Positions 1-12,114 of a stretch of DNA of 64,000 nt are shown in pieces (the first letter of the stretch is position 1; the number at the start of each line of letters is the position of its first letter). Source of the DNA: Nitrospinaceae bacterium (GTDB lineage: Bacteria; Nitrospinota; Nitrospinia; Nitrospinales; VA-1). The notes below the pieces were generated by a model. That model saw nothing but the letters and a program-made list of their open reading frames with translations. It was not told the origin of the DNA and made no database searches. A program made the translations under genes and the position numbers. The DNA is taken from assembly GCA_029261655.1 (NCBI GenBank), contig JAJDAY010000025.1:36390-100389 (forward strand), read 5' to 3'.

Positions 1-439
1 CACACCCGGTGATCGGCTTTTCTGATAAAAAATAGTTTCGATAACTGATTAAAGAAGCAAATTTCCTGCCAGAACGGGGAAAAACTATAAATTCAATTAA
101 AATACGGTTTTTCAAGAGCTTTCAACCTTCACTCCGCCCACGAAGCGGATGAAAAGACCACAAATGGATAAATCCAACCCATTGTTTTACTGGCTTTTGT
201 GCCAAATATTGTCATCTCGAAACCTTCGGGTGTTTTGCCGCACTCCCCCTGCCCTGGAGGCAGGGAGTTTAGGCCTGAGAATATTCTGAGACCGGGGGCC
301 TCATTTTTTTAAAATAGGGGAAGGAATTATCGGGGAACTCGAATAGAACCCTCGCGGTGGATTTTCCGCTAGAGCGCCGATCGGGAAAACCCAGGCCGCA
401 ATATTTCTGTCACCAGCGGCTCTGAGTTATATATCCTGG

Positions 440-619
440 TTACATAAGGGTGCGTATTGCGGAAGTCTCATCCTCATCCTCAAGGCTCATGACATGCTCT
501 CTATCTCTCTCTGTAAACTGGGTGCGAACGTAGTCCAGGGATCTTTTCTCTAATTCCGAACGTGTGACAATGTTCATCAATTTTCCGGTGCCGTCATAGA
601 TTCTAACTTCGTACAACAT
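440..619 (-). CDS. small hypothetical protein (59 aa, below ORF-track cutoff)
   Basis: ATG at 619-617 preceded by GGAGGTAAATT. Reads MLYEVRIYDGTGKLMNIVTRSELEKRSLDYVRTQFTERDREHVMSLEDEDETSAIRTLM, stop at 442-440. No family recognised. Confidence 0.35.
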   Translation of the reverse strand: MLYEVRIYDGTGKLMNIVTRSELEKRSLDYVRTQFTERDREHVMSLEDEDETSAIRTLM

Positions 620-1024
620 AATTTACCTCCGGTGCCGAGTGGTTGAATTCGAGTTAAAAACTTACAAAGTGTTGTTGGAAACCATCCGCCAGAAGGGGGG
701 ATCATTGGAGGAGACGTTTTCATCTGACGGATGGAATCCTAACTATTTTTAATGGCGAGAAAATCATCGCCTTGGATGATTACTACTTTGCCATAGCTAT
801 ATCGCAGATCCGTTAAGAGCATGTGACGGTTTGATTACTTTTGAATTTGATTTTAGACACCCGGCCCATGGGAGAATAACCTGCAGAAAATCAACGGGAA
901 ATGAGATGAAGGCATTTTCCTGAAGCAAAAAAATGATCCTCTGTTGGCCGGGGGATGCTTATAAAAAAGAGTTAATTTAAGGGTGGGAATGAAATGGTAA
1001 GAAAAAATGGTTTTTGCAGTTTCT

Positions 1025-1711
1025 TCAAAAAAGGTCGTTTTTATTTGCAACCTTTGATGAAAGAAATTTTAGAGTGTTGTCTTTGAGGTCAATCGTCGCC
1101 CTGGTTGGGGATACCGAGGCTGAAGAAATCAACCGCGCTTGTTTAACCTGAATGCGGGTCACGACTGTTTCTTCCCCTTTGGATGTTCTTACAGACCGAA
1201 TGAATTCAGCGTTGAGTTCTAAAAAACGGATCCCTGAAGAAGAGGAGCCTAGCGTCCCTACTGTATTTTCCGGGAACGGGTCATTTATTAATCTTTCATC
1301 TATTAATCTTTCATCATAATTTTTGGGGTGAAAGTTTTCAGGAGCGGTGGGTTGAAAAGGCGTCAGGGTTTCGGTGACGGGTTTGTTTTCTGGATCAGCC
1401 GATCGACGAGATATAAACGAAAATTTTGCCCCCACCTCGAAATGTCCAGAGGAAGAATAACCGGTGAGCGTTTTACAACGCACCACTTCCGCTTGAATTT
1501 CTTTTGGCTCTGATTCCTGCTTTTGCATGGGAAGGATCAAATCGAACTGCGTGCCGCTGGTGAAATACTTTGGGGCGCAAAAAGATATTCCGTGAATACT
1601 CAAGTCCCGGATGTTGACCTCCGACCGGTTTTTGGCAATGCCCCAAATGATACACGCCGACAAACCCACCTGCATTCTGGGCATTTTTCTTTTTTCCGCT
1701 GACAGATTCAT
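1025..1711 (-). CDS. PilZ domain protein (putative c-di-GMP receptor)
   Basis: The N-terminus carries both PilZ signature motifs, RxxxR (RKMPR) and D/NxSxxG (DLSIHG). Start moved to the ATG at 1711, which has GAGAGGAAG upstream; the ATG at 1741 has no RBS. Confidence 0.7.
   Translation of the reverse strand: MNLSAEKRKMPRMQVGLSACIIWGIAKNRSEVNIRDLSIHGISFCAPKYFTSGTQFDLILPMQKQESEPKEIQAEVVRCKTLTGYSSSGHFEVGAKFSFISRRSADPENKPVTETLTPFQPTAPENFHPKNYDERLIDERLINDPFPENTVGTLGSSSSGIRFLELNAEFIRSVRTSKGEETVVTRIQVKQARLISSASVSPTRATIDLKDNTLKFLSSKVANKNDLF
1287..1316. repeat. 15-bp tandem duplication inside the PilZ gene (encodes DERLI-DERLI)
   Basis: attaatctttcatct / attaatctttcatca read directly. Confidence 0.8.
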
Positions 1712-1970
1712 GCCAATCTTCCTCTCAGTCCAGAGAAACATTCATCATAGAAACATTATTTCTCAGCAAATAAAGCCCCAAAAAGTCCGGCGATCGAAAC
1801 CATAATATCACTATTTTCAATATCTTACAATAACCGTGCGGCCTTGGACCAAAGGGTCCAAAACCTCCAACCGTGACGAAAACGTGACAGGACCTTAACC
1901 CTGTTTAAATATTTATTTGAGATTCTGTTGACTCCAGAAAAGCCATTCACTTTTAATGGGGAGGTCAACT

Positions 1971-2138
1971 ATGGACACTGCAAATTTACCTAAAGAGATT
2001 GCCAGGATAAAATTAAAGGCTCGGTATATAGAGTTTCTGCACTGGAAAAAATTAGGGATGCGGTTGTTATGGAGATCGGTTCTATTGAATTTCCGGATAG
2101 GAAACCGAAAAATGAAATACCTGGTTGGAAGGAAATAA
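1971..2138 (+). CDS. small hypothetical protein (55 aa)
   Basis: ATG at 1971 sits 6 nt after GGGGAGG. Basic product MDTANLPKEIARIKLKARYIEF..., no recognisable family. Confidence 0.25.
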   Translation: MDTANLPKEIARIKLKARYIEFLHWKKLGMRLLWRSVLLNFRIGNRKMKYLVGRK

Positions 2139-2787
2139 ACTTCTTTAAACGCTTATTAAATTTTCTTTAAAAAAAATACCTCACGGCTCCCCGGCGACTC
2201 CCCAAGTGCGGGTCTCGAACCGCAACGCACTCTCTGATCCTGACCCAAGGGACTAGCGCATCGCATCACTTAAGCCCATTCAGACCACTAACTCTCACGG
2301 GAACCCCACGCACCTCATATATTTTCCGGGCCTGGCGTTTTCTCGAGGCCCAAGCTTCCTCTGGAAGAAGCGTCAGCTAATTTGCCCTCCGCATATCGAG
2401 GCGGGAGATTCTGACCCGCTGTTGGGAATCAAAAAAATTTATTTTATTCCCCCCTTTCTTCCAGCAACCCAAACTTGCCCGATTATATTTTGTCGATCAT
2501 TTTTTCTACCACCCGGAATTTATCCCCCACATCAAGGCTTTCTAAATAATATTTATCTTCTGAAAATATGGCGGCGCCGAAATGTGTGCCTCTTAGTAAG
2601 AGGATATACCGATAAATATCCGCCTAACCCATGCCCCTGCCCTTTCATTCCAAAAATTAAGATGAATTCAAAAAGTTGCTATTGCAAAATTTTTAATAAC
2701 TTTGATAGATTAAATGTAGATATGAGGTTTTCACACAGTCCTCGGGGGAGGATGGAACATGGAGGTTAACCACGAAGCGAGGGAATT

Positions 2788-3267
2788 ATGAAATATCTAC
2801 TGACCATCCTGATTTTATTGTTCGCATCTCCTGCGTTCGCCGGAGGAAATTTCGACGCGTTCAGCGGAGCCAATCAATCAAGCGGCGACAATGAACTGTA
2901 TGAGGAACCGGAAATTATCCAGGAAAATCCCATCCAGAAAAGCCCTGTCGCCGAGCAAGAGCAGGAACAGGAACAGGAACAGGAATTCAAAATCAACGAG
3001 AGATTGTACCGGGAAAGCATCGGTTCCAACGGCTACTATGGGGGCGGGTTTTATGGAGAAGAAAAGTATGCGGCCCTGATAGACTATTACACGATAACTT
3101 CCAATAACAGAGATTTTGATTTTGGAACGGGTTTCATTGTGGTGAATGACCAGCTCCTGCCAACAACCAATTTTTTGTCGCCTTTTGTCTCTCCCTTTGT
3201 CCAGGGCGGCATTCTATTTAACAGGGGAATCAGCATAAACCTTGGCAGCTTTAGTTTCAGACGCTGA
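2788..3267 (+). CDS. secreted hypothetical protein with an (EQ)n tract and a Gly/Tyr/Phe-rich C-terminal half
   Basis: Signal peptide MKYLLTILILLFASPAFA-GG and RBS GAGGGAATT before the ATG. Convergent with the Asn-rich paralog at 3386 and shares its terminator. Confidence 0.7.
   Translation: MKYLLTILILLFASPAFAGGNFDAFSGANQSSGDNELYEEPEIIQENPIQKSPVAEQEQEQEQEQEFKINERLYRESIGSNGYYGGGFYGEEKYAALIDYYTITSNNRDFDFGTGFIVVNDQLLPTTNFLSPFVSPFVQGGILFNRGISINLGSFSFRR
2953..2985 (+). repeat. GAR-CAR hexanucleotide microsatellite encoding EQEQEQEQEQE
   Basis: gagcaagagcaggaacaggaacaggaacaggaa read directly. Confidence 0.85.
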
Positions 3268-3301
3268 TAAGCATTACTAAAGATCGGTCAACCTGTCAGA
3301 C

Positions 3302-3347
3302 AAAAAAAACGGCAAGGAGACGTTGCATCTCCTTGCCGCTTTTATTT
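3302..3347. terminator. bidirectional intrinsic terminator shared by 2788..3267(+) and 3386..3985(-)
   Basis: Perfect 10-bp stem GGCAAGGAGA / TCTCCTTGCC (3311-3320 / 3328-3337) with a 7-nt loop. Flanked by A8 (3302-3309) and CTTTTATTT, so a U-tract follows the hairpin on both strands. Confidence 0.65.
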
Positions 3348-3360
3348 AAACCTGCAAAAT

Positions 3361-3380
3361 TGAATCAAACTTCTGATTCA
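3361..3380 (-). promoter_or_regulatory. conserved 3'-UTR hairpin (copy 1)
   Basis: TGAATCA-aacttc-TGATTCA, just downstream of the stop of 3386..3985. Confidence 0.5.
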
Positions 3381-3385
3381 GTTTA

Positions 3386-3985
3386 CTAGGGTACTGCTAT
3401 TACGCGAGGAGCGCCCAACCGGTTGCGGTTAAAGCTCTTCTTCGCTGTGAAGTTTTTGCTGGCATCAATGTCTACACCGATCCACGCGTTGGTGGAGCTG
3501 TTGTAGGAACTGTTGCTATTGTGAGAGTTGTTGACGTTGTAGTTTTTCATCACATCCACGTTCTTGGTCTTGGTGGTGTTGTAAGAATTTTTGTGGTTGT
3601 AAGAATTGATCGTAGAATCATTGATAGAGTTATCAATGTTAACCACATCGCCATCACCTGCGGCACCGGCGCCACCAAACTGCTGAACCACAAATTTTCC
3701 GCCAACCAGGTTGCCCTGAGCATTTACATTAACCTTGGTTTTGTTGGTAACATCGACATCGTAAGTCTTGTTGAAAGAATCTTTGATATCAACATCCAGA
3801 CCATCGTTATCCATGTTGTTCAAAGAACCTGTGACGTCAAGATCCAATCCATCGTCATCTGAATTATCGTTGAAAGATTTTTTGACATCGATATCAGTTC
3901 CGCCCCAATAGCCACCTGCGAAAGCTACGCTGGAAGAACCAACCAAACAAAGTGCGATTAATGCGGACAAGATTTTTTTCTGCAT
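3386..3985 (-). CDS. secreted Asn/Asp-rich repeat protein, paralog A (putative fibre/amyloid subunit)
   Basis: Start moved to MQKKILSALIALCLVGSSSVAFA (signal peptide) with AGGAG RBS. Motifs: recurring SFN(D/K/R), the GKFVVQQFGGAGAAG core, and NIDNSINDSTINS. Paralogous to 4107..4700 and 4826..5404. Confidence 0.85.
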   Translation of the reverse strand: MQKKILSALIALCLVGSSSVAFAGGYWGGTDIDVKKSFNDNSDDDGLDLDVTGSLNNMDNDGLDVDIKDSFNKTYDVDVTNKTKVNVNAQGNLVGGKFVVQQFGGAGAAGDGDVVNIDNSINDSTINSYNHKNSYNTTKTKNVDVMKNYNVNNSHNSNSSYNSSTNAWIGVDIDASKNFTAKKSFNRNRLGAPRVIAVP

Positions 3986-4029
3986 GATGCTTCTCCTTAA
4001 ATTAAAGTCAATTAAAGTTTGGATATAGT

Positions 4030-4060
4030 GCGGCAAGGAAATGCTGTGTCTCCTTGCCGC
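4030..4060 (-). promoter_or_regulatory. intercistronic stem-loop (copy 2 of the GGCAAGGAG hairpin), no U-tract on the coding strand
   Basis: GCGGCAAGGA / TCCTTGCCGC 10-bp stem. It extends to 12 bp with a G-U pair only in the minus-sense RNA. Confidence 0.55.
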
Positions 4061-4081
4061 GTTTGTTAAATCTACAAAACT

Positions 4082-4100
4082 GATTCAAACGTTCTGAATC
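4082..4100 (-). promoter_or_regulatory. conserved 3'-UTR hairpin (copy 2, with a compensatory base-pair swap)
   Basis: GATTCA-aacgttc-TGAATC, versus GAATCA/TGATTC in copies 1 and 3. Confidence 0.5.
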
Positions 4101-4106
4101 CGCTTA

Positions 4107-4700
4107 TTAATTCATTCCGTTTGGAAGTCCACGAAGGCCCCCCAATTGATTGCCATTGAAACTTCTAATGGCTTTGAAGTTGTGGCTCTGGTCAACGTTC
4201 ACATCAACGTCAAGGTCCAGGCTACGGGTGGAGCTACGAGTTTTGTTGAAAGAATTGTTGATCATGGAACTAGAGGTGTAGTTGTGATTAGAGGTATAGG
4301 TCCGGTTGTGAGAATTGGTGTCGTTATGGGAATTAATCGTAGAATCATTGATAGAGTTATCCACGTTAACCACACTGCCAGCACCTGCTGCACCGGCGCC
4401 ACCAAACTGCTGTACCACAAATTTTCCGATCACCCCGTTGCCCTGGGCATTTACATCAACTTTTGTTTTTTTGGTAATATCAATATTGTGAGTCTTATTA
4501 AAAGAATTCGTGACGTCAAGGTCCAAACCATCGTTGTCCATGCCGTTCAATGATTTGTTGACATCAACATCTATCAGATCATCATCAGAACGATCGTTGA
4601 AAGATTTGCTGATATCAATATCGTAGTAACCTGCGAACGCTACGCTGGCAGAACCTACCAGACAAAGAGCCAATACTGCGGACAAGATTTTCTTCTGCAT
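4107..4700 (-). CDS. secreted Asn/Asp-rich repeat protein, paralog B
   Basis: Start at MQKKILSAVLALCLVGSASVAFA with AGGAG RBS. Same motif architecture as paralogs A and C. Confidence 0.85.
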   Translation of the reverse strand: MQKKILSAVLALCLVGSASVAFAGYYDIDISKSFNDRSDDDLIDVDVNKSLNGMDNDGLDLDVTNSFNKTHNIDITKKTKVDVNAQGNGVIGKFVVQQFGGAGAAGAGSVVNVDNSINDSTINSHNDTNSHNRTYTSNHNYTSSSMINNSFNKTRSSTRSLDLDVDVNVDQSHNFKAIRSFNGNQLGGLRGLPNGMN

Positions 4701-4743
4701 GATGTTTCTCCTTAAATAGGTCAATTGAAGCTGGGTTAAAGTG

Positions 4744-4772
4744 CGGCAAGAAGATGTTGTACCTCCTTGCCG
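4744..4772 (-). promoter_or_regulatory. intercistronic stem-loop (copy 3 of the GGCAAGGAG hairpin)
   Basis: CGGCAAGAAG / CTCCTTGCCG. The single mismatch is A-C in plus sense but a G-U wobble in minus sense. Confidence 0.55.
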
Positions 4773-4794
4773 TGCTTGTTAAACCGTTACAACA

Positions 4795-4813
4795 GAATCA
4801 AACGATCTGATTC
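4795..4813 (-). promoter_or_regulatory. conserved 3'-UTR hairpin (copy 3)
   Basis: GAATCA-aacgatc-TGATTC. Confidence 0.5.
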
Positions 4814-4825
4814 CGTTAATCAAAG

Positions 4826-5404
4826 TTAGCGAGGTCCGATACCACCCAAGCGGTTGCGGTTGAAGCTGTTCACTGCTTTGAAGTTTTGGCTTTTGTCGAC
4901 GTCTACGTACACATCGATGTCTGCCGTGTGGCTGGAGGTACGGGTTTTGTTGAAAGAATCATTGATGTTCTTGGTAGAGGTGTAGTTGTGAGTAGAAGTA
5001 TAGGTACTGTTATGAGAATTGGTGTCGTTATTAGAATTAATCTTAGAACCATTGATAGAGTTATCAATGTTGTACACGTCACCAGCACCTGCTGCACCGG
5101 CGCCACCAAACTGCTGAACCACAAATTTACCCTTCACCAGGTTGCCCTGAGCATTTACATCAACTTTCGTATCTGAGCTGGCCCAAACATTAGCTTCTTT
5201 GTTGAAAGAACCTGTGATATCAGCATCGATCAAATCGTTGTCCATGTTGTTCAAAGATTTGTTGACATCAACATCTACATAATCGTCATCAGAACGATCG
5301 TTGAAAGATTTGCTGACATCAATGTCGTAATAACCTGCGAAAGCTACGCTGGCAGAACCTACCAGACAAAGTGCCAATACTGCGGATAAGATTTTCTTCT
5401 GCAT
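4826..5404 (-). CDS. secreted Asn/Asp-rich repeat protein, paralog C
   Basis: Start at MQKKILSAVLALCLVGSASVAFA. The N-terminal ~40 aa are nearly identical to paralog B. Same GKFVVQQFGGAGAAG core and NIDNSINGS motif. Confidence 0.85.
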   Translation of the reverse strand: MQKKILSAVLALCLVGSASVAFAGYYDIDVSKSFNDRSDDDYVDVDVNKSLNNMDNDLIDADITGSFNKEANVWASSDTKVDVNAQGNLVKGKFVVQQFGGAGAAGAGDVYNIDNSINGSKINSNNDTNSHNSTYTSTHNYTSTKNINDSFNKTRTSSHTADIDVYVDVDKSQNFKAVNSFNRNRLGGIGPR

Positions 5405-5454
5405 GATGTTTCTCCTTAAATTAAGCAAGTGATTAAATAAACTGCATTAGGTCA

Positions 5455-5488
5455 AGCAACAATAAAATTTCGATCCTGTGATCGAAAT
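5455..5488 (-). terminator. hairpin plus U-rich tract downstream of the CsgG-like gene (possible partial terminator)
   Basis: ATTTCGATC-ctgt-GATCGAAAT, a perfect 9-bp stem (5467-5475 / 5480-5488). In minus sense it is followed by TTTATTGTTG. Confidence 0.45.
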
Positions 5489-5494
5489 GAAAAA

Positions 5495-6367
5495 TCAGTA
5501 CGATACTTTCTGCCAGTCGTCTTCCTCGTCAAACGGCTCAACTTGGGTAGAAGCCGCGATAGGGGGTGCCTTACGAGCATCTTCAACACCTTCTACATTT
5601 GCGATGATTGACGAGCAGGATTTTGAGTCGATGTCGTAAAGGTCCGTCATCATCTCAAAGACAGCCATTTTCAGCATATTGCGCAATGCGAAGTGGACGG
5701 CTTCACGATGTTGTTCGCCCAAATCGACAGCCACTAAAATATCCCCAAAAAACCGGCCGATATTCGCGCCTATTTCGTCAGCAACAACCTGTTTGAAGAT
5801 GGAAGAATGTCCGACCACTTCTGAAGTTTTGGTGTCGGTTAAAAACAGATCCATCCCGATCAACATGCGGTGCTGGCGATATTTAGCTCCCACCCCGTAC
5901 ACACTGGCGTCGATGCCGCCGCCGGGAAGGAAATCCAGGCTGTTAATAGAACCTGTGATGTGATAGTCGGAACCGATCCATTTCACTTTTCCGCCAAAAG
6001 AGGCTTCCAGCTTCATCACTCGGGGATCACGTCGGTTGACCACGCGGGCAATTTGGGATTGCAACAAGGCGCTCTGAACGATATCGCCAGCCGCCTGGGT
6101 CACAAATTTTCCGTTTCCAGAGTCGGAAATGGAGAACTTACCGGTTTCATCACTGATCGCTCCAACACCGATGCTGGCTTTTTTGCCCAGGTAGGTAGAG
6201 CTCAGGCAGGAAAGCAAAGAATCATAGGGAGTCGTTATTTGATAAACAGGCTTGGGTCCTTCCGTCAATTTCATATCTTGCTTTAAGGGAGTGGTGGCGG
6301 CGCAACCGCTTCCCAAAGCTAAAATACTTAAAGCTAAAAAAAGCTTTGTTAGTCTCTCGTTGAACAT
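5495..6367 (-). CDS. csgG: CsgG/HfaB-family outer-membrane secretion-channel lipoprotein
   Basis: Start at MFNERL with GGAGG RBS. Lipoprotein-type signal ending LALGSG-C. Blocks align by eye to E. coli CsgG: IGVGAISDETGKF vs VSVYNIQDETGQF; ITGSINSLDF..GGGIDASVYGVGAKYRQ vs VEGSIIGYES..GGVGARYFGIGADTQYQ; LFLTDTKTSEVV vs LRVVNVSTGEIL. The symbol is family-level only. Confidence 0.85.
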   Translation of the reverse strand: MFNERLTKLFLALSILALGSGCAATTPLKQDMKLTEGPKPVYQITTPYDSLLSCLSSTYLGKKASIGVGAISDETGKFSISDSGNGKFVTQAAGDIVQSALLQSQIARVVNRRDPRVMKLEASFGGKVKWIGSDYHITGSINSLDFLPGGGIDASVYGVGAKYRQHRMLIGMDLFLTDTKTSEVVGHSSIFKQVVADEIGANIGRFFGDILVAVDLGEQHREAVHFALRNMLKMAVFEMMTDLYDIDSKSCSSIIANVEGVEDARKAPPIAASTQVEPFDEEDDWQKVSY

Positions 6368-6459
6368 TTTTTGTGCCTCCGAATTAAGCAAGGTTATGAA
6401 ACAAGTAATTAGAATTTAAAAATGTCGTTTCGTCGGTTCTGCCATCAAAACTGACGGTC

Positions 6460-6876
6460 TTATTTATTGATATTCTTGTTGATATTCGTATGAGTGGTGT
6501 TCGTATTGGTTGTGTTATTGCTGTTCTGAATGGTTTTATTAATATTCGTCGTTGTCGTCGAAGTTTTGGTTTTGTTAAAAGAATCTTTTGTGTTGAAGGA
6601 ATCGAGCACAGAATCATTTATGGAGTTATCAATTTGAATGATCTGACTCCCAATGTGAGTTGTCTCCGTACCGAAATAGGTGGAAGAACTATTGAATCCA
6701 TCCTCTTCAACGAGTTCGATGGCGAGTGCCTGCTCCACGAGGCGTGCTTTTTCAAATGATGATGGAAAGCCCCAACTATTGTTCCAATCTGCAGAAGGGT
6801 TGGCAAGAGCGGAACTTCCGCTCAGGAGTAGCGCCGCAACCGCAAGCATCAGAATTTTTCCTGAAAATTTACACAT
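6460..6876 (-). CDS. secreted protein with a unique N-terminal domain and an Asn/Thr-rich tail that shares a module with the paralogs (candidate accessory/nucleator)
   Basis: Start moved to MCKFSGKILMLAVAALLLSGSSALA (signal peptide) with GAGAGG RBS. The segment QIDNSINDSVLDSFNTKDSFNKTKT matches NIDNSINDSTINSYNHKNSYNTTKT of paralog A. Lies directly upstream of the CsgG-like gene. Confidence 0.75.
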   Translation of the reverse strand: MCKFSGKILMLAVAALLLSGSSALANPSADWNNSWGFPSSFEKARLVEQALAIELVEEDGFNSSSTYFGTETTHIGSQIIQIDNSINDSVLDSFNTKDSFNKTKTSTTTTNINKTIQNSNNTTNTNTTHTNINKNINK

Positions 6877-7003
6877 GATGAACCTCTCTGGTAAAAAAGT
6901 TATTTTCACAGCCAGGCATTGGTGATCTTTCTCGAACCGGCCTGTGTGAACCCTCTCGAATTAAATGTCTTGAGGTGAATATTGCAGTACGGTTGTTAAG
7001 TTT

Positions 7004-7032
7004 TTATCAATCCAATGTCACAATAGTGTCAA
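7004..7032 (-). promoter_or_regulatory. possible sigma70-type promoter for the 6876-to-3386 gene string
   Basis: In minus sense, TTGACA (7032-7027) followed 17-18 nt later by GATAAA. By-eye match only. Confidence 0.25.
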
Positions 7033-7559
7033 CTTGGGCACTTAAAATTGTTTTCAACACAAGTTATAGAAGCGATGCATCCTCTTAGACCGAACCCTGT
7101 CGGATAACACCCACCAGCCTGTATTGAGCTCCATGATGGACGATGGGTGTTAAGGTTTGGTTAAAGGGATGTCACTGTTTGAAAAAACCTGGGGGGCCAC
7201 TGCAAAAGGGTTGTAAAATCGGCCCTTTGCAAGAACAAAGCGGATGTTTCCTTAGCTTGGAAGGGATTTTTTCAGGGCGGGCAGGAAATCAACCCACGGG
7301 AGGATATGCAAGGATGTGGAAGGGCGATTATGAGGATCGTAACAAGGCTGAAAAAGAATGATCAGGCGAAAGCCCGCCTCTATAAAGCGAAGATCTCATC
7401 TGCCCTCGTAGCCTATGAGACCGGGAGCGGTCGACGAGGGGGGGCGGCCTGCTGTCTCAGATTCAATTTTTCTTCGTAAACCTCAAGTTTTTTCGCTCAT
7501 TAACCGTTACGAAAATCAGGAGGCTCCGATTCAAATTTTTATATAAGAGGTAAGAGATC

Positions 7560-7709
7560 ATGGAAAAAGTGAAAGTCATTTACCCAATCCCGGCAACTTT
7601 GAGTGGCGAAAACGATTCCTACGGTTCCCGCCAGTTCATCATGAAGACAATCGCCGCGTCTCTTTGCGGAGCCGTCGTTCCCGCGATCATTTTTTATTTT
7701 ATGATGTGA
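7560..7709 (+). CDS. small hypothetical protein (49 aa) with a C-terminal hydrophobic helix
   Basis: ATG preceded by AAGAGGTAAGAGATC. Reads MEKVKVIYPIPATLSGENDSYGSRQFIMKTIAASLCGAVVPAIIFYFMM. Below the ORF-track cutoff. Confidence 0.3.
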   Translation: MEKVKVIYPIPATLSGENDSYGSRQFIMKTIAASLCGAVVPAIIFYFMM

Positions 7710-7868
7710 TTCATCGCCTGCTTGGCCGCTGCTTTCCGTGAATTTCTTAACGATTCCAGGATAAACTTGTAGGGCCGTGCGTGCCATCCGCCTTATACCT
7801 GCCTTGATAGATCACTCCGTCTTTATTAAATCACTCGTTCTGCGTTAAAACACTCGTACCTCGTTGGA

Positions 7869-8540
7869 TCACTCGTTTTTTCGGGGAGTCTTTTTTTGTT
7901 CCTCGCACTCGAAAGTCGTGTCCGAAGTCCATTTTATGTTGAGATGATCGGGAAGCTTCGTGGTGTTATCCACCACGGCAGACTCGAGATCTTTACACGA
8001 TAATTTTCTTATATTGCGTAAATCCGCTCCCTGGAGCAAGACACCCTTCAAACAAGCTCCCTCCAGATTAGAACCCTTGAGATTGGCTCTCTGGAGATCG
8101 GAGCCTTCGAGATTGGCTTCCTCTAAATGCGCCTGGGGGATCTGAGCATCTTGCAGGTTAACGCCCTTTAAGTTTGCCCGCCTGAGGTTTGCCTTCATCA
8201 GAAAACTTTCGCGTAAATTTGCCTGACTGAAATTCGCCCCCTTCAGAAACGCACCTTCGAACTTAGCCCTTCGTAGAAAAGCCTCTGTCAGATTTGCCCC
8301 GCTCAAGTTGGCTTTATAAAAATTTGCGCCGCTCAGGTTGGCTTTATTAAGGTTCGCTTTATTCAAATTCGCATTTGAAAAATCAGCCTCGCTCAAAAAA
8401 GCCTCGCTGAGATTGGCTTCCCGAAGATCGCCATAACTGAAATTGGCTTTACCAAGATCCAGAGTGGAGAGATCTGCGCCCTTGAGGTTGTCTTTTTCAG
8501 CGATGATTTTCTTGCGGTCAAAATGTAAATTTTCTGGCAT
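7869..8540 (-). CDS. pentapeptide-repeat protein
   Basis: Long run of A(D/N)LxX pentads, e.g. ANLNKANLNKANLSGANFYKANLSGANLTEAFLRRAKFEGAFLKGANF. Confidence 0.9.
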   Translation of the reverse strand: MPENLHFDRKKIIAEKDNLKGADLSTLDLGKANFSYGDLREANLSEAFLSEADFSNANLNKANLNKANLSGANFYKANLSGANLTEAFLRRAKFEGAFLKGANFSQANLRESFLMKANLRRANLKGVNLQDAQIPQAHLEEANLEGSDLQRANLKGSNLEGACLKGVLLQGADLRNIRKLSCKDLESAVVDNTTKLPDHLNIKWTSDTTFECEEQKKTPRKNE

Positions 8541-8691
8541 GGTATTATCCCTGGTTGTTACAGAACTTCAGATAAAATCATTGACCTAAATTGTATCAAA
8601 GGTTAAATTCGAAACCGCGTTGCCATTTTTGATTGAAGTTTTTTCAGGTATCCTATCATACCTGTTCACGACCCCACCAAGGATTGTAAAT

Positions 8692-9261
8692 ATGAGCACA
8701 CACCATGATGCCGTGTTATACGAAATTCGACAAACCGTCCAGGAAACCGTCAACCGATCCAACCGTATCGCCGGACCCATAAACTGCGATGTAGCGAGCC
8801 TGCAATACGGATTGGGATTTATCGTTTGCCGGGGTTTTCTGGAAAAGGAAATGAATAAAAAATGCACCCTCCCAGCCCCGGGGAAATTTCCCAAACGCAT
8901 GAAAAATATTTCCGGCAAACCCTTCGTCCGGGCCATAGACTACTGGCAGTACAAATTCGACCCCAAAATCACCTGGTACGGCTGGGAGGAGTTGACCCTT
9001 TTTTTCCGGCTGACAGATTGCTTCAGCGAAAGCGGAGGAACCTTGAATGGCAAGGGAGTGCGGATCAAAGCGTTTCTAAAACAGTTGGAGGCAGGCGAAA
9101 TTAAAAACCGCAAAAAGAAACCGGTCGATCCTTATTTTGATATCAATGACCAGGGCAAACTGAAATTACAGGATGAAGCGCTGGAACGGTTCACATCCCT
9201 GTCCGGGGAACTGGTTCATCTGGCGGAAAAATTTCTGCGCAAGAAAAAAAGGTCCTCGTAA
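8692..9261 (+). CDS. hypothetical protein
   Basis: ATG at 8692 (MSTHHDAVLYEIRQ...). The track version starts at an upstream TTG. Basic C-terminus, no family recognised. Confidence 0.55.
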   Translation: MSTHHDAVLYEIRQTVQETVNRSNRIAGPINCDVASLQYGLGFIVCRGFLEKEMNKKCTLPAPGKFPKRMKNISGKPFVRAIDYWQYKFDPKITWYGWEELTLFFRLTDCFSESGGTLNGKGVRIKAFLKQLEAGEIKNRKKKPVDPYFDINDQGKLKLQDEALERFTSLSGELVHLAEKFLRKKKRSS

Positions 9262-9273
9262 AACAATATTTAT

Positions 9274-11946
9274 TCAATGCGCTTCGTTCCAGTTGTTGCC
9301 CCATCCCATATCGACAATGATGGGAACGGAAAATTTATAGACCCCTTCCATTTCCTTTTTCACCAGAGCCTGCATTTCTTCTTTTTCAGCGGGCGGGCAT
9401 TCAAAAACCAATTCATCATGGACCTGCAGGATCATCTTCGATCGCAGTTTGCGCTTTTTCAATTGCCCGGACAAATTGATCATCGCCACTTTAATAAGAT
9501 CGGCGGCGCTTCCCTGAATGGGCGAGTTGATCGCGATCCTCTCCGCCGCCTGCTTCACCTGTTTGTTTTTGCTGTGAATGTCCGGCAGGGTGCGTTTGCG
9601 GTTCATGATCGTGATCGTGTATCCCTTCTCACGGGCCTGGGCGATGGTGTTGTCCATATAAGTCTTGATGCGCGGATACAAATCAAAATACTGATCGATG
9701 AATGTCTTGGCTTCTTTCATGGAAATTTTTAATTGCCTGGACAGGCCAAACGAACTCAATCCGTAAATGATGCCAAAGTTCACCGCCTTGGCCATCCGGC
9801 GGGCTTCCTGATCGACATTATCGAGAGCCGTTCCAAAAATTTCCGCCGCCGTCCGGCTATGAATATCCTCTCCCTTCTTAAACGCTTTTATCAGGGTTTC
9901 ATCTTCTGAAAGATGCGCCAGAATTCGGAGTTCGATCTGCGAGTAATCGGCGGACAACAACTTGTCTTCCCCTTCGGCGACAAACGCCTTTCTTATCTCT
10001 TTGCCCATGTCCGTGCGGATAGGGATGTTTTGCAAATTGGGATCACTGCTGCTCAAACGCCCGGTCGCCGCCACCGTTTGATTGAACGAGGTGTGCACCC
10101 GACCGGTTTTTTTGTCAATCTCCAAAGGCAGCGTGTCGACATAAGTCGATTTTAATTTCCCCAATTGGCGAAAGACCAGTATATTCGCAGGCAAGTCATG
10201 CTGGTCGGCCAGTTCTTCTAAAACCGAAACGTCGGTGGAATATCCGGTTTTGGTTTTTTTGACAACCGGAAGTTTGAGCTTCTCAAATAAAATCACCGCA
10301 AGCTGCTTGGGTGAATTGATATTAAACTCTTCCTCGGCGAGCTGATAGATTTTCTGCTCGTAGGTGCGTAGTTTCTTTTCTATCTGCTTTGACAAATCCG
10401 CCAGGTGTTGTTTATCCAGAAACACACCGTTCAATTCCATTTCCGCCAGCACTTCGAGAAGGGGCATTTCCATTTCGTTGAACAATTGAAGCAGTTCATC
10501 GGTCAACTTTGGTTTGAGATTTTTGTAAAGCCGCCAGGTAATATCAGAATCCTCCGCCGCATACTCCGTGGCCCGTTCAACGTCCACCTCGTCGAAGCCG
10601 ATTTGTTTGGCCCCGGTTCCCGTCACATCCTTATAGGTGATGGTTTGATGCCCGAGCAATTCCAGAGCCAGCGCATCCATGCCATGCCCCCGGCGCGAAG
10701 GGTCCAGCACATAAGAGGCGAGCATGGTGTCAAATGAAATTCCCTTGAGATGAATGCCTTCGTTTAGGAGGACGATCAGGTCGTATTTGATATTATGCCC
10801 GATTTTGCCTATTTTTGGATTCTCCAGAATAGGCTTTAATTTCTGGAAAACCATTTTAGGGTCCAACTGTTCCGGCACACCCAGATACCTATGAGTGAGC
10901 GGGATGTAATACGCCTCATTTTCCTCAAATGCAAAAGAAATCCCCACCGATTCCGCATCCACCGGGTGCAGGCTGGTGGTTTCCATGTCGAGAACAAACT
11001 CTTCCTGAAAACCAAGGTCAGCCAGCAACGCATCAAACGCTTTTTCTGTCAAAATGGTTTGATATTTATGCGGCGCTCGAACAGGCGTTTTTTCTTCCTT
11101 GGGGATCAGGGAAGAAAACTCCAACTCCGTAAAAATTTTGGTGAGCGCTGTCATATCCACCGCCTGAACTTTCAGATCATCGATGGAACAATTGACCGCC
11201 ACGTCCGTGTCGATGGTGACCAGCTTCCGGCTCAGTTCAGCATTTTCCCGGTCCGTCTCCAGCTTTTCTTTGAGCTTTTTTTTGTCGATCTCATTAATAT
11301 GCTGGTAAATATTTTCAATCGAGCCGAATTTCTGAATCAATTCCGCCGCCGTTTTTGGCCCCACCCCTTTCACGCCGGGAATGTTGTCGCTCGAATCGCC
11401 CATCAACCCCATCACATCAATGACCTTATCCGGTCCCACGCCGAATTTTTCGATCACTTCCTTTTTGCCGAAACGTTTATTTTTCATCGTGTCCAGCATC
11501 TGGATGTCAGGCTCGATCAACTGCATCATGTCCTTGTCGCCTGAGACAATGACGACCTTCAAACCCGCTTTTTTCCCCTGCCGGGCCAGAGTCCCGATGA
11601 TGTCGTCGGCCTCGACACCTGGAATGCGGATCGAGTGAATATTGTGAGCGGCAACCAGACGTTCAAAATAGGGGAACTGTTTTTGCAAATCTTCTGGCGG
11701 GGTGTCCCGGTTGGCTTTATAATCAGCGTACATTTCATGGCGAAATGTCTTTTCCTTGCTGTCAAAAGTCACGGTCAGGTAGTCAGGACACTCATCCCGC
11801 ACCACTCTTTGCAACATGGTGACAAACCCGTAAAGGGCATTGGTGGGAAGACCTTTTGACGTGGAAAGATTTTGCCTGACTCCAAAATAAGCCCGGAAAA
11901 TATAAGAAGACCCGTCTATCAAATAGAGGGTTTGTTTGTCGCTCAT
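9274..11946 (-). CDS. polA: DNA polymerase I
   Basis: Contains the 5'-nuclease, 3'-5' exonuclease and Pol A palm motifs (RRMAKAVNFGIIYG, QVHDELVFE). Start moved to MSDKQTLYLIDGSSYIFRAYF. Confidence 0.97.
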   Translation of the reverse strand: MSDKQTLYLIDGSSYIFRAYFGVRQNLSTSKGLPTNALYGFVTMLQRVVRDECPDYLTVTFDSKEKTFRHEMYADYKANRDTPPEDLQKQFPYFERLVAAHNIHSIRIPGVEADDIIGTLARQGKKAGLKVVIVSGDKDMMQLIEPDIQMLDTMKNKRFGKKEVIEKFGVGPDKVIDVMGLMGDSSDNIPGVKGVGPKTAAELIQKFGSIENIYQHINEIDKKKLKEKLETDRENAELSRKLVTIDTDVAVNCSIDDLKVQAVDMTALTKIFTELEFSSLIPKEEKTPVRAPHKYQTILTEKAFDALLADLGFQEEFVLDMETTSLHPVDAESVGISFAFEENEAYYIPLTHRYLGVPEQLDPKMVFQKLKPILENPKIGKIGHNIKYDLIVLLNEGIHLKGISFDTMLASYVLDPSRRGHGMDALALELLGHQTITYKDVTGTGAKQIGFDEVDVERATEYAAEDSDITWRLYKNLKPKLTDELLQLFNEMEMPLLEVLAEMELNGVFLDKQHLADLSKQIEKKLRTYEQKIYQLAEEEFNINSPKQLAVILFEKLKLPVVKKTKTGYSTDVSVLEELADQHDLPANILVFRQLGKLKSTYVDTLPLEIDKKTGRVHTSFNQTVAATGRLSSSDPNLQNIPIRTDMGKEIRKAFVAEGEDKLLSADYSQIELRILAHLSEDETLIKAFKKGEDIHSRTAAEIFGTALDNVDQEARRMAKAVNFGIIYGLSSFGLSRQLKISMKEAKTFIDQYFDLYPRIKTYMDNTIAQAREKGYTITIMNRKRTLPDIHSKNKQVKQAAERIAINSPIQGSAADLIKVAMINLSGQLKKRKLRSKMILQVHDELVFECPPAEKEEMQALVKKEMEGVYKFSVPIIVDMGWGNNWNEAH

Positions 11947-12114
11947 GGGTCCATGGGGAAATAATTTTTCTGGGGAAGGGGAAAACGCCCCCGTGAATGA
12001 AAAACGATTATAGGGGCGGCCGATTGCCGAGTCCAACGAATTATGCTATGATGCCTCTCGTTTTAACCACTAAACTTATTGTAAACAAAGGACTATAGTG
12101 CGACTCCGCGTGTC

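Follow-up and report, generated by a model that had tools for sequence, protein, structure and literature searches.

The 64,000-nucleotide stretch of Nitrospinaceae DNA analysed here (contig JAJDAY010000025.1; hereafter the window) carries three tandem paralogous genes, A, B and C, on its minus strand, within an interval (3386-5404) that spans exactly from the stop codon of A to the start codon of C. Along that strand, a gene for a small secreted protein comes first, followed by a gene for an outer-membrane lipoprotein of the CsgG/HfaB family and then by C, B and A (Table 1). We refer to the paralog products, and to the proteins that take their place in other genomes, as cargo, in keeping with the reading of the locus that we favour, in which they would be fast-evolving substrates of the CsgG/HfaB-type channel that assemble on the cell surface.

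Table 1. Genes and hairpins at the paralog locus, with positions in the window.
Feature	Position	Strand	Details
Paralog C	4826-5404	minus	192 aa; mature 169 aa; first cargo gene past the channel gene
Paralog B	4107-4700	minus	197 aa; mature 174 aa
Paralog A	3386-3985	minus	199 aa from MQKK; leader 23 aa; mature 176 aa, 19.0 kDa, pI 4.8, Cys-free
CsgG/HfaB-family outer-membrane lipoprotein, presumed secretion channel	5495-6367	minus	290 aa from the conserved MFNERL start
Small secreted protein, hfaA position	6460-6876	minus	138 aa
Hairpin after paralog C	4744-4772	minus	CGGCAAGGAG..CTTCTTGCCG; without T-run; part of the duplicated unit
Hairpin after paralog B	4030-4060	minus	GCGGCAAGGAG..TTCCTTGCCGC; without T-run
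Hairpin after paralog A	3305-3343	minus	18-pair stem, then T-run TTTGTCTGAC
Secreted G/Y/F-rich protein	2788-3267	plus	159 aa; convergent to the operon; (EQ)n tract; C-terminal GSFSFRR; no Pfam match
PilZ-domain protein	1025-1741	minus	Pfam E 3e-8

The three paralogs and their family

The preliminary description had read a fixed modular layout in all three proteins, and each of the blocks that it listed is found in their alignment. The leader, MQKKILSA(L/V)(I/L)ALCLVGS(S/A)SVAFA, is of the Sec type with a putative cleavage site between AFA and G, and is followed by an acidic half made of hDhDh-x-K-SFN units, the core block KVxVNAQGN..GKFVVQQFGGAGAAG, the motif DNSIN(D/G)S(T/K)INS, a stretch rich in N/S/T/H/Y and the C-terminal block NF(K/T)A..SFN(R/G)N(R/Q)LG. 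The SFN motif, said to recur three to four times per protein, was counted 3, 4 and 4 times, which exceeds the expectation from composition-preserving shuffles (P<=1e-4). The acidic half is itself an internal repeat with a period of 16-17 residues, hDhDh-x-K-S-(F/L)-N-x-x-D-(D/N)-D-(G/L), present in three copies with a fourth, degenerate copy at the C-terminus; its best 10-residue self-matches, with scores of 41, 36 and 36, lie above the 95th percentile of shuffles (32-34). The mature proteins are all of about 19 kDa with an isoelectric point (pI) of 4.7-5.1, lack cysteine, consist to about 60% of N/D/S/T/G/K and have a grand average of hydropathy of about -0.75, a composition that resembles that of CsgA. 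Their charge is split between an acidic N-terminal half and a neutral-to-basic C-terminal half.

In the alignment B shares 75% of its residues with C and 64% with A, the most diverged of the three. Pairwise ratios of nonsynonymous to synonymous divergence (dN/dS) of 0.30-0.43 indicate that the paralogs are coding and under purifying selection. Synonymous divergence (dS) forms a mosaic, with values of 0.2-0.38 in the leader and central Q/G core and 0.7-1.4 in the acidic repeats; in the N-rich stretch it is 0.7-1.4 for pairs with A and 0.49 for B-C. This mosaic suggests localised, partial gene conversion among the copies. Within the sub-lineage of the window, A, B and C each occur once in three related metagenome contigs and form separate orthologous groups with A as the outgroup, a grouping that supports the sequential duplication proposed earlier, followed by the retention of three non-redundant types. 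Upstream of every paralog the start codon is preceded by the same sequence, TTTAAGGAGAA(A/G)CATC-ATG, in which AGGAG lies seven bases ahead of the ATG.

A word-indexed search of 5.8 billion proteins yielded 42 relatives of the paralogs; when 1.84 billion cluster representatives were searched exhaustively with a HMMER profile, no more than 13 reached E<=1e-3. Paralogs A, B and C are identical to the search entries P0003, P0001 and P0002, respectively, and the sole named relative comes from a Nitrospinaceae metagenome-assembled genome (MAG). The architecture is kept in 40 related sequences from other samples, and the family alignment conserves the leader MQKKILSAVLALCLVGSASVAFA, a mature G-Y-Y/W N-terminus and DSFN-type motifs. 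Most members also share the central core QGNxVxG(K/H)hVVQQFGG...G(D)V..(D)NSIN.S.I.S.N..DS.N, which is missing from the most diverged of them (P0037-P0041). The paralogs match no Pfam model, even at E<=1, and no NCBIfam family, and the family profile found one chance-level match to an unrelated protein among PDB sequences and nothing else. When representative genomes were scanned with the paralog alignment, pattern matches were obtained of which none was confirmed by tblastn, low-complexity filtering being the probable cause; the scan with the channel alignment identified five MAGs, all of them Nitrospinota/Nitrospinaceae/Nitrospinales. Our literature search returned no paper connecting Nitrospina to curli. 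The paralog family is real, narrowly distributed and unannotated and, as far as these resources show, undescribed.

AlphaFold2, supplied with a 40-sequence alignment, predicted nothing beyond the signal-peptide helix and no strands, at a mean predicted local distance difference test (pLDDT) score of 44.6; on this model the paralogs are probably disordered. The earlier suggestion of head-to-tail polymerisation through conserved termini gains nothing from this prediction, and conservation across the family is concentrated in the central core, not at the termini.

A constant channel and leader with changing cargo

The protein encoded immediately upstream of the paralogs matches the Pfam CsgG model (PF03783) with 48 bits, above the gathering cut-off of 20.8, and carries a lipoprotein leader with its cysteine (...LALGSGC followed by AATT) that is invariant across seven loci, features that place it by homology in the CsgG/HfaB family. 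Its best curated family is NCBIfam HfaB (NF037935; 94.4 bits, E 6e-27), a higher score than the 23 bits obtained with NCBIfam CsgG, and the match to CsgG in the PDB is weak (E 5e-5). Judged by these scores, HfaB is a nearer relative of the channel than the CsgG of curli. Its identity across seven Nitrospinota loci is 82-93%.

The expected linkage of the family to CsgG-like genes in other genomes was borne out. In all seven contigs looked up for family members (five members with long contigs and two that share little beyond the leader), a protein carrying the leader is encoded directly downstream of a CsgG/HfaB-family gene, and the arrangement of small protein, channel and 1-3 tandem cargo genes is kept on the same strand and with tight spacing even where the cargo body has been replaced. 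Another 12 loci, of Nitrospinota or Nitrospinota-like origin, and four loci outside that group have the same gene order. One metagenome contig (L005, 2353-6534) carries two tandem copies of the entire set of small protein, channel and cargo, the cargo copies having diverged and the channel copies being almost identical.

Compared with the channel, the cargo evolves quickly, its identity across loci dropping to 34-45%. The leader is different again. The segment formed by MQKKILSAVLALCLVGSASVAFA and G-Y-Y/W (leader codons at 5336-5404, 4632-4700 and 3917-3985 in the window) shows 86% residue identity between genomes (L001-L011, L017 and L018), an invariance that is unusual for a signal peptide. 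Codon pairs for the same residue are 68% identical between genomes, and the synonymous variation implies that the constraint acts chiefly on the peptide; a cause at the RNA level was ruled out, as the main cause, on the same figure. The idea of a shared export signal is strengthened by these data, since the leader and G-Y-Y/W are near-invariant even on unrelated mature parts. In five MAGs (L007-L011, at about 5970-7380) the cargo slot holds a single protein of 375-470 aa with repeats of about 40 residues, NINKGxVKAKTxTxAxDDVxxNxISTxAIGAxTxI, for which no Pfam model scored above its gathering threshold. When this large-repeat cargo was compared with the window family by hhalign, only the leader and G-Y-Y aligned (83%), and two further members, P0042 and P0045, likewise retain the leader on almost unrelated bodies.

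The small protein encoded ahead of the channel has 63 homologs, and the named ones are all from Nitrospinota. Its N-terminal part, in which DWNNSWGFP precedes a predicted helix (EKARLVEQALAIELVEE), is highly conserved among 62 homologs (..SSDWNNSWGFP..EKA.L..QALAIELVE..GF), and the C-terminus consists of a module common to the paralogs, IDNSINDS..DSFNKT(T)n, which in the lineage of the window reads IDNSINDSVLDSFNTKDSFNKTKT... and equals the module of the cargo core. This relationship is seen in the hhalign comparison of the two families (89%, E 2e-6, 52 columns), in the match of a small-protein homolog, P0046, to the cargo profile in the exhaustive search (E 1e-4), and in Smith-Waterman z scores against shuffles of 7-14.5 between small protein and cargo inside the lineage that carries DNSIN. 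Against cargo of other lineages the z scores run from 0 to about 6, and in those lineages the small protein ends in AIGNQVNI...DGNVAAQNN. Co-variation of the small protein with its cargo is therefore solid in the DNSIN lineage of the window only, and marginal elsewhere.

For the small protein, AlphaFold2 (62 sequences) predicted a coil of about 16 residues and a helix of 20 residues, followed by disorder, with a pLDDT of 49.3. No sequence match to CsgF was found in the Pfam scan, and the small-protein profile retrieved neither CsgF nor anything else from the PDB. CsgF binds CsgG with an N-terminus that comprises a 12-residue loop, then a linker and then a helix (PMC7304575), and the predicted coil and helix of the small protein resemble it in this low-confidence model.

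Proposed surface export and its alternatives

On balance, we hold it moderately probable that the paralogs are the fast-evolving cargo of an HfaB-like, type VIII-like channel and assemble on the cell surface, templated by the small protein. In this model, each paralog would cross the inner membrane by the Sec route, be cleaved after AFA and stay unfolded in the periplasm, as its lack of cysteine, its content of about 60% N/D/S/T/G/K and the lack of a predicted fold would allow. The unfolded chain would then pass through the channel encoded immediately upstream; substrates of CsgG are described as crossing in unfolded form (PMC10192328, PMC3521004), and the absence of an AlphaFold2 fold for the cargo fits such a passage. 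Assembly at the surface would produce a cell-attached fibre or an anchor layer, seeded or anchored by the small upstream protein, the N-terminal coil and helix of which would dock on the channel in the manner of CsgF on CsgG and the C-terminal DNSIN...SFN module of which would provide the template, the part that CsgB plays for CsgA. The acidic repeats of 16-17 residues (hDhDh-x-K-SFN-x-x-D-D/N-D-G) and the Asn-rich tail could supply strands and Asn ladders, possibly stabilised by divalent cations. We infer export through this channel, docking, templated polymerisation and an adhesive or anchoring role from the linkage of the genes, the homology of the channel, the module common to cargo and small protein, and analogy with known systems.

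Several observations weigh against this model. The 94 bits of the channel fall far below the HfaB equivalog cut-off of 300 bits. Outside the DNSIN lineage, the z scores of cognate pairs of small protein and cargo, about -0.1 to 4.4, are no better than those of non-cognate pairs. The structure predictions are low in confidence for both the cargo (pLDDT 44.6) and the small protein (49.3), and Pfam, NCBIfam and PDB profile searches detected no similarity to CsgA/CsgB or to any solved chain. Finally, CsgG/HfaB-family genes also occur in cassettes without a known secreted substrate, such as an Acinetobacter lipoprotein cluster (bioRxiv 10.1101/2021.05.19.444899), so that adjacency is no proof of export.

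It is also conceivable, if rather unlikely in our judgement, that the paralogs leave through the channel and do not polymerise, forming instead a hydrated, acidic, disordered surface coat or cation-binding layer in which composition and short motifs alone matter and rapid sequence turnover is driven by phage, grazers or antibodies. The absence of a predicted fold, a mature cargo that diverges far faster than the channel (34-45% against 82-93% identity), the outright replacement of cargo bodies behind an unchanged leader and the D-rich repeats with their N-x-D-x-D-G-like turns would all suit a coat of this kind. They have to be set against the core QGNxVxG(K/H)hVVQQFGG...DNSIN, which is strongly conserved in most members (not in P0037-P0041) and recurs in the small protein, arguing for a specific structure or interaction over composition alone, and against the maintenance of three distinct paralog types. 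We regard as unlikely to a greater degree a case of mere synteny, with the paralogs staying in the periplasm or associated with the outer membrane, as envelope hydrophilins or metal buffers, and the channel serving another substrate or a polysaccharide. Precedents exist, in that for some CsgG/HfaB cassettes no secreted protein has been identified as the substrate (bioRxiv 10.1101/2021.05.19.444899) and HfaB is thought to have roles besides secreting HfaA and HfaD (bioRxiv 10.1101/2022.07.20.500906), but a same-strand, tight arrangement that persists in 7/7 contigs despite replacement of the cargo body, the duplication of small protein, channel and cargo as one unit in L005, and a module shared between the cargo and the small protein encoded ahead of the channel all count against it.

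Least probable by far is that the paralogs are divergent curli subunits, homologous to CsgA/CsgB, in a curli operon. The adjoining CsgG-family gene, the CsgA-like composition without cysteine and a superficial likeness between the core FVVQQFGGAGAAG and a curlin repeat such as MTVKQFGGGNGAAV would invite this view. However, with no Pfam match at E<=1 the paralogs have none to the curlin repeat PF07012, and the family profile has only its chance-level match in the PDB. The minimal curli motif, repeated in tandem, is X6-Q-X-G-X2-N-X10 (PMC3521004); E. coli CsgA has five occurrences of Q-x-G-x-x-N, and the three paralogs and the small protein have none. CsgA homologues are modelled by AlphaFold2 with a pLDDT of 83 +/- 9 (n=2,686; PMC10192328), compared with 44.6 here, and the channel scores higher with HfaB than with CsgG. 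In addition, no homologue of CsgE, CsgF, CsgC or CsgD was found among the three flanking open reading frames (ORFs) that were scanned with Pfam for Csg accessory models (6460-6909, 2788-3267 and 1025-1741). The lack of a curlin repeat, of a predicted solenoid and of Csg accessory genes in the scanned ORFs, together with the HfaB-closer channel, largely refutes a curli assignment.

Returning to surface assembly through the channel, a broader and more tentative proposal, which we would put forward as doubtful at present, is one of modular export. A near-constant HfaB-like channel and an adaptor in the HfaA position would be combined with a cargo slot that is repeatedly refilled with unrelated, fast-evolving repeat proteins, each keeping only the invariant leader and G-Y-Y/W, as a targeting code. 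The C-terminus of the adaptor would co-evolve to mimic the cargo and nucleate a non-curlin functional amyloid or an Asn-ladder fibre of three distinct subunits.

On the reading that we favour, the paralogs would be a new form of cargo for an already known type of secretion system, with a presumed function and mode of assembly. Mechanistic detail for CsgG-type channels comes from curlins and genetics from HfaA/HfaD, and the window locus supplies a third class of cargo, for which no sequence relationship to curlins was detected with Pfam, NCBIfam or PDB profiles and none to HfaA/HfaD with NCBIfam models. Two features stand out, namely the invariance of a leader that precedes interchangeable cargo and a putative adaptor with a C-terminus copying the cargo core. 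Loci in which the same channel and adaptor serve diverged or swapped cargo bodies form a natural series that could show what a type VIII-like channel recognises (the candidates being the invariant leader and the G-Y-Y N-terminus), how an adaptor or nucleator tracks its cargo, and whether Asn/Asp-rich proteins that are not curlins form functional amyloids. Nitrospinota include the main marine nitrite oxidisers and, to our knowledge, their surface and aggregation biology has been little studied; a surface-fibre or anchor system, if true, would bear on their attachment to particles.

Flanking features and related systems

The unit that was duplicated to give the paralogs extends into the intergenic DNA, where a hairpin is conserved. 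This GC-rich hairpin, GCGGCAAGGAG...CTCCTTGCCGC, stands behind every paralog, with a T-run at the last copy only, and the copy behind A is terminator-like and probably marks the end of the operon. A second, upstream hairpin, GAATCAGA.CGTTTGATTC, is likewise duplicated. These repeated hairpins may serve to stabilise or attenuate the transcript and in this way set the ratios of the subunits; an Rfam scan of positions 1-12000 of the window found no RNA family.

In the Pfam and NCBIfam searches of the paralogs and their neighbours, matches were obtained for the channel and the PilZ protein only. The convergent gene for the G/Y/F-rich secreted protein has a counterpart beside the cassette in 8/13 Nitrospinota-type loci, whatever the type of cargo: homologs are encoded in L001, L002, L003, L006, L009, L010 and L011, and L017 has a gene of similar size and orientation. 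Its product is a possible accessory factor. Genes for PilZ-domain proteins are found downstream of the cassettes of L002, L003 and L006 also, which hints at control by cyclic di-GMP (c-di-GMP). On the far side of the small protein, a 223-aa ORF (7869-8540, minus strand), read from its translation alone, consists of an extended series of pentapeptide repeats of the form A(N/D)Lxx (ANLSGANLTEAFLRRAKFEGAFLKGANFSQANL...).

Beyond Nitrospinota, the closest of the 354 channel homologs are 45-50% identical, are annotated 'CsgG/HfaB family protein' and come from Alphaproteobacteria and Thauera. Three such contexts (a Thauera genome, the unplaced metagenome contig L013 and a contig of Ochrobactrum/Brucella type) encode a small protein of 146-150 aa, the channel and a secreted protein of 267-288 aa, the last a different one in each. 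The small protein of Thauera is homologous to that of Nitrospinota (hhalign 95.8%, E 7e-9), and that of the Ochrobactrum/Brucella-type contig gives a weak match (hhalign 76%). The third gene of L013 has its homolog in the large-repeat cargo found in other Nitrospinota MAGs (hhalign 98%), and none of the third genes of these cassettes is detectably related to the window paralogs. These three genes follow in the same order on a plasmid of Brucella pseudintermedia (NZ_CP137606), where the channel shares 81% identity with the one on the Ochrobactrum/Brucella-type contig, both genes that flank it are annotated hypothetical, and an EAL protein is encoded two genes further downstream. On L013 (1-8828) the cassette lies amid many short ORFs and genes for UvrD-like, helix-turn-helix and DprA-like proteins, a neighbourhood that looks like a phage or another mobile element. 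The 'hypothetical protein - CsgG/HfaB family protein - hypothetical protein' cassettes of B. pseudintermedia NZ_CP137606 and Thauera mechernichensis resemble the window locus in gene order and, at 45-50% identity, in their channel, and differ from it in that the third gene encodes one secreted protein of 267-288 aa.

Among better-known systems, an RTX (repeats-in-toxin) or beta-roll protein with GGxGxDxUx nonapeptides (HemolysinCabind) was ruled out by the lack of a Pfam match and by the repeat, hDhDhxKSFNxxDDDG with a period of 16-17; cation binding by the D-rich turns of the paralogs is a possibility. The likeness to curli lies in a channel of the CsgG family, in a cargo that is Cys-free, polar, rich in N/G/S/D and probably disordered, and in a minor protein with a module that recurs in the major cargo, a relationship like that of CsgB to CsgA. 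In contrast to curli, the window paralogs have neither curlin repeats nor a predicted beta-solenoid, and the putative roles of adaptor and nucleator would be combined in one small protein encoded ahead of the channel.

The holdfast system of Caulobacter offers a closer parallel. There, HfaA and HfaD need HfaB for their localisation at the surface, are mutually dependent and form amyloid-like multimers, resistant to sodium dodecyl sulfate (SDS), that anchor the holdfast (PMC6707917; bioRxiv 10.1101/2022.07.20.500906). The window locus differs in that its channel, at 94 bits, lies well under the 300-bit equivalog cut-off for HfaB, its cargo genes come in 1-3 tandem copies of about 170 residues, and its host belongs to Nitrospinota and is not a stalked alphaproteobacterium. 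The small protein and the paralogs have no NCBIfam match at E<=1 apart from one at chance level, and are likened to HfaA and HfaD by gene order, not by sequence. What the two loci share is the order of small secreted protein, CsgG-like lipoprotein and secreted cargo, as reported for hfaA-hfaB-hfaD, a channel with HfaB as its best curated match and a c-di-GMP-related neighbour, here the PilZ protein. HfaA-HfaB-HfaD of Caulobacter appears, by analogy, to be the closest functional counterpart of the window locus.

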